This document shows, in pieces, positions 12,560-13,315 of a stretch of DNA of 20,101 nucleotides. Origin of the DNA: an uncultured bacterium (GTDB lineage Bacteria; CAIJMQ01); assembly GCA_964573245.1 (NCBI GenBank), contig CAZNJA010000022.1:1-20101 (forward strand), in the 5' to 3' direction. The translations under genes and the position numbers were made by a program. The notes under the pieces were generated by a model. It saw only the letters and a program-made list of their open reading frames with translations, had not been told where the DNA came from and did no database searches. Positions within the stretch are counted from its first letter, which is position 1, and the number at the start of each line of letters is the position of its first letter.

Positions 12560-13315
12560 ATGAGCAATAGGAAACAGAAGATGGTGGAGAAAACAGAACT
12601 TAAAAGAGTTGCAAAAGAATGGATTCAGTCTATATTAATTGCTTTTATCGTTGCTATGTTCATCCGCACTTTTTTCATTCAGCCGTACCGTATCCCTTCC
12701 GGCTCGATGCTGCCTACATTAAAAGTAGGTGACCATCCTTTAGTCAATAAACTCATTTATAAAATAAGAGAACCCCAGCGCGGAAACGTAATTGTGTTTT
12801 TATACCCTGTTGTAGAATACGGGTGCACAGAGTGTATGTATAAATATAAATTTTTAGGATTATTTAATAGATACGAATATAGATATACTTATGAATATCG
12901 GGAAGATTACGATAAAGTTCAATACGGGAATATCCCTTTTGATAGATTACCGGACGACTGGATTTGCCCCGCATGCGGAGCGCCTAAGAGCAGTTTCAGG
13001 AAACTGCCGAGGAAGCCGTTTATAAAAAGATTAATCGGCTTACCCGGAGAAACCGTTAAAATAAGCGATGGGGAAATTTATATAAATGGAAAACCGTTGG
13101 AAGAGCCATTTAGCATAACGCAAAGACACTATATCTCCGAAAAAAACTTTGCAACTGAGGAAATAAAAATTCCTCTTGATAGTTATTTCGTTCTCGGTGA
13201 TAATACGGGCAATTCAAAAGATAGCCGTTATTGGGGTTTTGTTCCAAAAGAAAATTTAATAGGTAAGGCAGAGGTCATTTATTGGCCCCCGCACAGAATA
13301 AGAAAAATAAGATGA
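12560..13315 (+). CDS. lepB: Signal peptidase I with inserted rubredoxin-like domain
   Basis: One TM helix, [37 protein letters not shown]; internal CTEC...[17 protein letters not shown]. Confidence 0.92.
   Translation: [251 protein letters not shown]

Follow-up and report, generated by a model that had tools for sequence, protein, structure and literature searches.

The stretch of DNA analysed here, called the window, comprises 20,101 nucleotides of an uncultured bacterium (positions 1 to 20,101 of the forward strand of contig CAZNJA010000022.1, assembly GCA_964573245.1; GTDB lineage CAIJMQ01) and contains a lepB-type gene for signal peptidase I, in which a complete rubredoxin domain is embedded between two of the conserved boxes of the enzyme. 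By sequence criteria, the product of this gene is a type I signal peptidase with an intact catalytic apparatus and a membrane anchor, and its insert is a genuine rubredoxin that has been captured whole, from the first to the last residue. An earlier note, made from the letters of this DNA, had placed a rubredoxin-like domain within signal peptidase I between the Ser box and the Lys box, and this was borne out by matches to both the S26 peptidase and the rubredoxin (PF00301) families, with the location now more exactly defined as residues 84-149, between box C and box D. The interest of this arrangement lies chiefly in a rubredoxin fold predicted to stand outside the cytoplasm near the specificity pockets of the enzyme, together with a convergent parallel in another phylum. 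As to its role, the insert is best read, with moderate confidence, as a metal-stapled structural extension of the substrate-binding hairpin beside the subsites S3-S5.

The sole long open reading frame (ORF) covering positions 12815-13003, the region singled out by the earlier note, is that of the peptidase, and no rival ORF of comparable length is present. Its product matches the Pfam family Peptidase_S26 (PF10502) over residues 19-242 with 178.5 bits (cut-off 22.9, E 1.3e-52) and the NCBIfam model TIGR02227 (sigpep_I_bact) with 165.7 bits, against a cut-off of 47. The catalytic motifs are invariant or nearly so across alignments of 22 and 101 homologues and match the chains of E. coli LepB in the PDB. 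In the 22-row alignment of full-length insert-bearers (A3), S49, M50, P52, T53 and L54 are invariant; the same is true of G213, D214, N215, S219, D221, R223, W225 and G226 in the 101-sequence alignment (A2), while K156 and R157 do not vary in any of the alignments A1, A2 and A3.

The protein carries one hydrophobic anchor (residues ~17-43), which follows a Lys/Arg-rich N-terminus and is modelled by AlphaFold2 as one long helix spanning residues 3-38. Kyte-Doolittle windows of 19 residues exceed 1.6 only when starting at residues 17-25, the maximum beyond residue 45 is 0.98, and the flanks of the insert contain no hydrophobic stretch. Since there is a single hydrophobic segment and none flanks the insert, the insert is placed on the membrane side of the active site. 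An N-in/C-out orientation with an extracytoplasmic catalytic domain is indicated by the positive-inside rule and by the known topology of the family, and hence the expectation of the earlier note that the domain faces outside the cytoplasm is supported, with the orientation itself being predicted. A cytoplasmic location of the insert by means of extra membrane segments was considered and rejected, because a second hydrophobic segment is absent from the Kyte-Doolittle profile.

The insert separates box C (R74-P83) from box D (P153-K156-R157), and its boundaries can be read from relatives that lack it. Its 66 residues stand for only two in the closest insert-free homologue, P0022, which reads 'YP-EN-PKKPFIKR' at this site, and E. 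coli LepB reads 'YP..PKLDYIKR'; the window protein resumes after L149 with 'PRKPFIKR'. When the window protein was compared by tblastn with insert-free relatives, the alignment broke at residue 83 or 84 and resumed at residues 146-152 in 15 out of 15 loci, and the same break around the insert was observed in four sister genomes (G005-G008).

Several lines of evidence identify the inserted residues as a rubredoxin. The Pfam model PF00301 matches residues 118-146 with 30.9 bits (E 2.8e-7, gathering cut-off 23), and the score rises to 34.2 bits when the insert is scanned alone. Only model positions 16/20-47 are matched, because a Tyr-rich hairpin interrupts the N-terminal half of the domain, and the insert scores 29.2 bits with the NCBIfam rubredoxin equivalog NF045768, below its cut-off of 90. 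In a phmmer search of PDB sequences with the insert, 58 distinct sequences were found at E values up to 0.01, all but three of which are rubredoxins or engineered rubredoxin chimeras, the best being 6rxn (E 2.8e-9). Rubredoxin hallmarks retained in the insert include Y94, Y96, F127, 'LPDDW134', K143 and F146, and W134, C136, P137, C139, K143 and F146 are invariant in the alignment of insert-bearers. As the earlier note had stated, all four Cys residues (C89, C92, C136 and C139) and an extended Tyr-rich loop (Y105-Y113) are present. In the homologues designated P0018-P0021, inserts are of normal rubredoxin length without the Tyr-rich hairpin, and these share 52-63% identity over 51-52 residues with free 52-53-residue rubredoxins of sister genomes (L007, L008, L010 and L011), with E values of 1e-20 to 1e-27 as computed in a small local database.

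The Tyr-rich hairpin is, from these comparisons, a later addition of 14 residues made inside the rubredoxin in the clade of the window protein. MAFFT places the extra residues of this clade at about G100-Y113, residues 84-152 contain ten Tyr, and a Tyr occupies every second position from Y105 to Y113. The orthologue in one genome (G002, locus L005) carries a fifth Cys within this hairpin ('RYEYCSIYEY'). Further departures from free rubredoxins concern short motifs. A Gly following the second Cys of each knuckle is typical of electron-transfer rubredoxins. In the first knuckle this Gly is found in only two of the 21 four-Cys inserts, as compared with four of the four complete free rubredoxins of the phylum; the second knuckle of the window insert keeps CPxCG, and the motifs 'YDP' and 'PGT' of free rubredoxins are lost in the clade of the window protein. 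P0018 has lost the second ligand Cys ('CPTG'), yet its insert is the one most similar to free rubredoxins (63% identity).

Structure prediction, one of the checks suggested by the earlier note, yielded a model that matches both signal peptidases and rubredoxins, and by this model the insert adopts the rubredoxin fold. The AlphaFold2 model, built from 101 sequences, has a mean predicted local distance difference test (pLDDT) score of 87.6 and a predicted template modelling score of 0.78, with blocks of the insert at pLDDT 78-96. Strands 77-81 and 84-89 continue from box C, strands 146-149 and 153-160 lead into box D, and the Tyr-rich hairpin is built of strands 93-98, 102-107 and 110-114 (block pLDDT 78-86). 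A Foldseek search with the whole model recovered signal peptidases of E. coli, S. aureus, S. pyogenes, E. faecalis and B. anthracis (E 1e-8 to 1e-3), followed by many rubredoxins with template modelling scores of 0.62-0.72 normalised to the target and E values of 0.02-0.08, the whole protein having served as the query.

Table 1. Features of the window that bear on the insert-bearing signal peptidase, in window coordinates
Feature	Position	Strand	Details and basis
lepB-type signal peptidase I gene with rubredoxin insert	12560..13315 (stop included)	+	251 aa; ORF list, PF10502, TIGR02227, AlphaFold2, Foldseek
Single N-terminal membrane anchor, ~W21-I40	12620..12679	+	Kyte-Doolittle; AlphaFold2 helix
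Box B 'SGSM', nucleophile Ser49	12698..12709	+	Aligns to 'IPSGSMMPTL' of E. coli LepB
Box C strand R74-P83	12779..12808	+	Aligned to 'RGDIVVFKYP' of the 1t7d chain
Inserted rubredoxin domain V84-L149, 66 aa (52-aa rubredoxin plus 14-aa extension)	12809..13006	+	PF00301, phmmer, Foldseek, alignment with free rubredoxins
First knuckle C89-T-E-C92 (then Met)	12824..12835	+	C89 invariant; C92 in 21/22
Tyr-rich beta-hairpin extension, ~K97-R114	12848..12901	+	14-column gap in P0018-P0021 and free rubredoxins
Second knuckle C136-P-A-C139-G140, 'LPDDW' just before	12965..12979	+	Cys codons 12965-12976
Box D P153-E164, general base Lys156 in 'FIKR'	13016..13051	+	Aligned against PKLDYIKRAVGLPGDKVT of E. 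coli LepB
Box E G213-G226	13196..13237	+	Fits GDNxxxSxDSRxWG
Genes for FMN reductase/flavodoxin-like protein, P-type ATPase with YHS domain, malate/lactate dehydrogenase, peroxiredoxin, FNR-like reductase, VIT1-family protein, 104-aa rubrerythrin-like protein and Ogg glycosylase	2703..10201	-	

Among the 120 best homologues in the database, 22 (P0001-P0021 and the fragment P0023) combine Peptidase_S26 and Rubredoxin domains, an architecture for which a search had been advised in the earlier note; the named sequences among the neighbours are labelled Omnitrophota or Omnitrophica, and the database label of these proteins is simply 'signal peptidase I'. Together with the presence of the fusion in four of nine genomes, described below, this recurrence exceeds what chance would give. 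The conservation of the Cys residues in homologues, also raised as a check, holds in the alignment of full-length insert-bearers, with C89, C136 and C139 invariant and all four Cys retained in 21 of the 22 rows, the exception being P0018 with Gly in place of C92. Selection was estimated by the Nei-Gojobori method on the window gene and three genomic orthologues (six pairs), expressed as the ratio of non-synonymous (dN) to synonymous (dS) substitution rates. The dN/dS of the insert is 0.05-0.21 in four of the six pairs, the other two being saturated at synonymous sites, that of the peptidase core is 0.06-0.12 in all six, and that of the Tyr-rich part, estimable in two pairs, is 0.065-0.085. Judged by these ratios, the insert is under purifying selection.

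The fusion is, within the sequences searched, confined to one small lineage. Among nine genomes of the phylum-level group, it is present in four (G000, G001, G002 and G003), all of one family; the fifth genome of this family (G004, 81% complete) gave no peptidase match, and four genomes of two sister families (G005-G008) have orthologues without the insert. In 185,579 species genomes, just one of the 80 best loci, L013, has the insert. When 1.84 billion representatives were searched with a profile, 70,980 hits were obtained, and among the best 150 of these a single full-length insert-bearing cluster was found (P0013, 472 bits, with the next hit at 217.6 bits), besides a fragment of 152 residues with the second knuckle (P0122); as the best 150 were considered, further fusions may exist among lower-ranked representatives. 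Searching by the insert region alone gave seven scored candidates, all of them already known, which says nothing about other lineages. The gene order ligA-lepB-bioY-cysS is held in the four loci of the family and was not seen in loci of other families. Since the same in-frame architecture and synteny recur in G000-G003, and the insert-bearing homologues come from several sources, including independent genomes and metagenomes, the possibility of an assembly chimera or a frameshift artefact, the former named in the earlier note as a ground for refutation, carries practically no weight. Within the family, free rubredoxin genes are patchy: G001 has one beside the fusion, G004 has a 5'-truncated copy at the edge of a contig, and the search of G000, G002 and G003 gave none.

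To place the fusion in the history of the family, a maximum-likelihood tree of 81 peptidases was computed by a quick search on 182 columns, with loop columns removed. The 22 insert-bearers are gathered in a single group that is nested within insert-free peptidases of the Omnitrophota type and has a support of 89 in the Shimodaira-Hasegawa-like approximate likelihood-ratio test (SH-aLRT). The canonical-length inserts of P0019-P0021 branch first, and the forms with the Tyr-rich hairpin are derived.

The genome that contains the window is 1.46 Mb in size, 93% complete and 0.01% contaminated. It encodes a BamA-type Omp85 protein, recovered by family search, and hence a periplasm is expected, and a thiol-reductant transporter of the CcdA/DsbD type (DsbD_TM). 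Family searches of this 93% complete genome did not find DsbA, DsbB, VKOR or TatC, an absence that does not amount to proof. Taken at face value, the lack of detectable oxidative-folding genes together with the presence of CcdA suggests that the Cys4 site stays reduced and binds a metal rather than forming disulfides. A disulfide-stapled module is, for the same reasons (no DsbA, DsbB or VKOR found and CcdA present), the less likely variant. No other PF00301 match, and hence no free rubredoxin, was found in the genome. The question posed in the earlier note of whether this is the only lepB was answered in the negative: a second S26 paralogue of 168 residues (TIGR02227, 106.6 bits) is encoded on another contig, C54 of G000 (L002:1489-1995, minus strand). 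This paralogue is divergent, with the anchor, Ser and Lys present and box E degenerate as GDNRSGAIDAHEKG. Its gene overlaps by a few bases that of a 166-residue membrane-anchored protein of no known family.

The location of the insert relative to the substrate-binding groove can be approached through E. coli LepB. According to a published docking model of this enzyme with a substrate (PMC2259416), the S1 subsite includes Tyr143, Ile144 and Lys145, S3 is lined by Phe84, Gln85, Ile86, Pro87, Ile101, Val132, Asp142 and Ile144, and Asp142 belongs to both S4 and S5. The window segment P150-K156 aligns with 'PKLDYIK' of E. coli LepB, and box C aligns to 'RGDIVVFKYP' in the same LepB chains, albeit with a weak E value of 0.75 for a query of 26 residues. 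With D-Y-I-K taken as 142-145 and the subsites as given in PMC2259416, V79 of the window protein corresponds to Val132 and P153 to Asp142, so that the insert starts five residues past an S3-lining residue and ends four residues before a residue shared by S3, S4 and S5. By this analogy, the inserted knob is likely to flank the groove on its non-prime side, close to the exit of the signal peptide from the membrane.

The site of capture is the tip of the beta-hairpin connecting boxes C and D, and from these positions a mechanism can be proposed. As the two terminal strands of a rubredoxin are adjacent to each other, the domain would simply prolong the host hairpin, and the ease with which rubredoxin can be inserted in loops is illustrated by the many engineered receptor-rubredoxin loop chimeras in the PDB. 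The result would be a rigid knob in which C89, C92, C136 and C139 hold a single metal ion, Fe or Zn, as a staple. Because the hairpin carries V79 and P153, this knob would stand at the non-prime end of the groove, where the c-/h-region of the signal peptide leaves the membrane, and it could either extend or wall this end of the groove or dock it on the membrane surface, for which an amphipathic Tyr face and a hydrophobic FLGLF turn are candidate interfaces. The effect would be a tuning of the acceptance or the presentation of signal peptides. Since no twin-arginine translocation (Tat) system was found, the domain would have to be exported unfolded, presumably through Sec, with its metal taken up in a periplasm that is apparently kept reduced. 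If the enzyme depends on reduced thiols and metal, this would then be a consequence of such a design rather than its purpose.

A parallel to this arrangement was found among other profile hits, which include long, Cys-rich S26 peptidases of ~460-560 residues (for example, P0141, P0151, P0161, P0163, P0166, P0174, P0208, P0221 and P0233). A search seeded with one such ribbon-bearing peptidase gave 114 further hits, whose names include Brocadia, Kuenenia, Scalindua, Anammoxibacter and Planctomycetota. At least two CxxC knuckles are present in the box C-box D loop in all 72 members with locatable boxes, the boxes not having been located by motif patterns in the other 42 of the 114, and the median length of this loop is 41 residues in the ribbon family against 9 in ordinary relatives. 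The register of these ribbons is nearly that of the rubredoxin inserts: the first Cys is the sixth residue after 'YP' in both, and the distance from the last Cys to '[FY]IKR' is 11-12 residues in the ribbon peptidases as compared with 13-14 in the rubredoxin inserts. Many ribbon peptidases have, in addition, another ribbon directly after box B ('GSMAPTLLGxHKxxxCPNC...CPNC') and a large extra domain before box E.

Descent of the rubredoxin insert and the Planctomycetota ribbons from a common source was considered and rejected, both on sequence and on the tree. Ribbons show no significant similarity to rubredoxins (best E 0.009 against five sequences), their host proteins form a separate clade with a support of 89, and the approximately unbiased (AU) test rejects a single clade of rubredoxin- and ribbon-bearing peptidases (p 0.003), for a grouping that was chosen after inspection of the tree and that includes two long branches. 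One ancestral module followed by many losses may nevertheless lie behind both types of insert. Insertions recur in the box C-box D loop, a hot spot in which compact Cys4 modules have been fixed at least twice. Other insertions were also observed: a stretch of ~130 residues in P0121 (316 residues), rich in Lys and Glu and free of Cys, lies in this loop, as do the ribbons of P0150 (324 residues) and P0255 (516 residues), which are on long separate branches, and P0220 (342 residues) has a Cys4 ribbon after box D.

The structural reading is preferred over a role in electron transfer on three grounds: conservation of the first-knuckle Gly has broken down, the clade of the window protein no longer has 'YDP' and 'PGT', and a ribbon that is not a rubredoxin occupies the same place in another phylum. 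Of the functions suggested in the earlier note, a metal- or redox-sensitive peptidase or a structural module affecting substrate choice, the unconserved Gly, the ribbons and the location of the insert beside S3-S5 lean indirectly towards the latter. Several points weigh against it. Where the knob stands with respect to groove and membrane was deduced from homology to E. coli LepB and a published docking model rather than from measured geometry, and the independence of the ribbons leans in part on the AU grouping chosen as described above. Non-synonymous change has gone further in the insert than in the core, with dN higher by a factor of 1.2 to 5.6. In the best tree, the insert-free P0022 is located inside the insert-bearing group, paired with the Cys-losing P0018 with a support of 88 (supports around P0022 are 87-89), and this position implies that the module may be dispensable; it suggests decay and loss of the module in the P0022/P0018 lineage, with the alternative of an insert-bearer clade without P0022 not being rejected by the AU test (p 0.26). 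Finally, the Cys-free insertion of P0121 at the same loop indicates that the site may simply be permissive.

These last points are also what a tolerated passenger would predict, that is, a rubredoxin lodged in a permissive surface loop, harmless if folded and harmful if unfolded, with no part in the work of the peptidase. The acceptance of other insertions by this loop (~130 residues without Cys in P0121, and loop lengths of up to 134), the possible secondary loss in P0022, the loss of a Cys in P0018 and the elevated dN all fit this explanation. It is rather improbable, however, in view of the low dN/dS of the insert and its retention across sequences down to 53% identity, the elaboration within it of a conserved Tyr-rich hairpin that is itself constrained, and the independent gain of a Cys4 module at the same register in another phylum. 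The main rival to a structural extension is a switch responding to redox state, oxygen or metal, in which the Cys4 site would hold Fe or Zn only in the reduced form, and oxidation or loss of the metal would unfold the knob and alter or stop cleavage, thus coupling secretion to redox state in an oxygen-sensitive organism. Four conserved Cys predicted to be exposed to the periplasm, a CcdA reductant pathway with no oxidative-folding genes found, and a nearby upstream set of anaerobe-type oxidative-stress genes (for a rubrerythrin-like protein, peroxiredoxin, FMN reductase and VIT1) are compatible with such a switch. The sequence, however, cannot tell a switch from a static staple, the stress genes are located on the opposite strand beyond ligA, the Planctomycetota ribbons suggest a structural role common to both groups, and one lineage lacks a Cys and another apparently the whole insert; on balance we regard it as unlikely. 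Far less probable is an electron-transfer rubredoxin tethered to the outer face of the membrane, with the peptidase as its anchor, which would serve a periplasmic redox partner: the C-terminal half keeps the canonical surface LPDDWxCPxCGAxKxxF, and the genome has no other PF00301 match, but neither a periplasmic partner nor an electron source was identified, the first-knuckle Gly is found in only 2/21 inserts, the domain is buried as an extension of a hairpin of the enzyme, and the Tat pathway for export of a cofactor-loaded protein was not found. The boldest proposal, which would have a metal-loaded (possibly iron) rubredoxin outside the cytoplasm and Cys4 modules at the box C-box D hairpin as a recurrent device, evolved independently more than once, of anaerobic Planctomycetota-Omnitrophota bacteria, gating or retuning signal-peptide recognition so that export answers to periplasmic redox or metal, is put forward as speculative and doubtful.

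The neighbourhood of the gene provides some further context. Upstream of ligA, the run of genes listed in the last row of Table 1 is concerned with metals and oxidative stress, and this set is consistent with an oxygen-sensitive lifestyle. The genome contains a rubrerythrin-like gene, but a free rubredoxin was not found. The spacer between ligA and lepB (12433-12559) contains an imperfect inverted repeat of 25 nucleotides (12447-12471 and 12502-12526; 80% complementary, 30 nucleotides apart), made of tandem direct repeats of 14 and 21 nucleotides, and no sigma-70-like promoter was called within this spacer. As the corresponding spacer is only ~40 nucleotides long in L096 and L013, the inverted-repeat element is probably not conserved. 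On the plus strand, positions 19227-19796 encode a protein of 189 residues with a SocA/Panacea antitoxin-like domain (E 4e-18).

Signal peptidase I, an essential enzyme and a target of antibiotics, is regarded as simple and constitutive, with its specificity thought to lie in a small groove, and rubredoxins do not normally occur outside the cell membrane. The insertion described here is natural and under selection, and it puts the complete fold of a metal-binding redox protein, its metal site being predicted, beside S3-S5 of this essential enzyme. If the module shapes substrate choice or confers a dependence on metal or redox state, it would represent a new way of regulating secretion and one of few instances of a rubredoxin fold employed outside the cytoplasm. 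Were it to act as a gating device, a control layer that has gone unrecognised would be added to an enzyme regarded as constitutive. That anammox Planctomycetota carry an unrelated ribbon in this register points to a design principle of some generality rather than a curiosity, and provides two independent test systems. The fusion is also a clean case of domain capture, with a whole small gene placed in a hairpin turn, much as structural biologists do with rubredoxin in receptor loops. In the literature, judged by titles and the beginnings of abstracts, no description of a signal peptidase-rubredoxin fusion was found, nor anything relevant on an extracytoplasmic rubredoxin-like domain or on the signal peptidase of Omnitrophota; a search on zinc ribbons of Planctomycetes signal peptidases likewise found no description. 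Foldseek and a PDB sequence search did not find a solved signal peptidase structure with such an insert.

In comparison with known systems, the window protein resembles the S26A signal peptidases E. coli LepB, S. aureus SpsB and the B. anthracis enzyme in the Ser/Lys dyad, boxes B-E, the membrane anchor and the fold, but differs from them by a 66-residue domain with metal knuckles in place of a two-residue turn, and it lacks the large domain II of LepB. Its insert shares with stand-alone rubredoxins (L007, L008, L010 and L011; 6rxn, 1brf and 1bq8) the CxxC knuckles, the aromatic core (Y94, Y96, F127, W134 and F146), Lys143 and the fold, and differs in being embedded in a putatively extracytoplasmic enzyme, in the loss of the Gly, 'YDP' and 'PGT', in the Tyr-rich hairpin and in a score below the equivalog cut-off. 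Rubredoxin-type Cys4 domains are fused naturally to other proteins in rubrerythrin, flavorubredoxin, PknG, LapB and RubA. To our knowledge, natural rubredoxin fusions are terminal and cytoplasmic or stromal, whereas the domain in the window protein is internal and predicted to be extracytoplasmic. The closest natural parallel, the ribbon-bearing S26 peptidases of Brocadiales and other Planctomycetota (P0141, P0151, P0166 and P0174), have a Cys4 module of two knuckles in the same loop and in nearly the same register, but this is a generic ribbon of 30-40 residues, and these proteins, which form a separate clade, have additional ribbons behind box B as well as a large extra domain. Engineered receptor-rubredoxin chimeras (4mbs, 4xnv and 5vbl) likewise use rubredoxin as a rigid, self-folding module in the loop of a membrane protein; these, however, are man-made, carry the module in a loop on the cytoplasmic side and give it no functional purpose in the host, in contrast to a natural insert that, by its predicted location, would stand outside the cytoplasm beside the substrate-binding groove.

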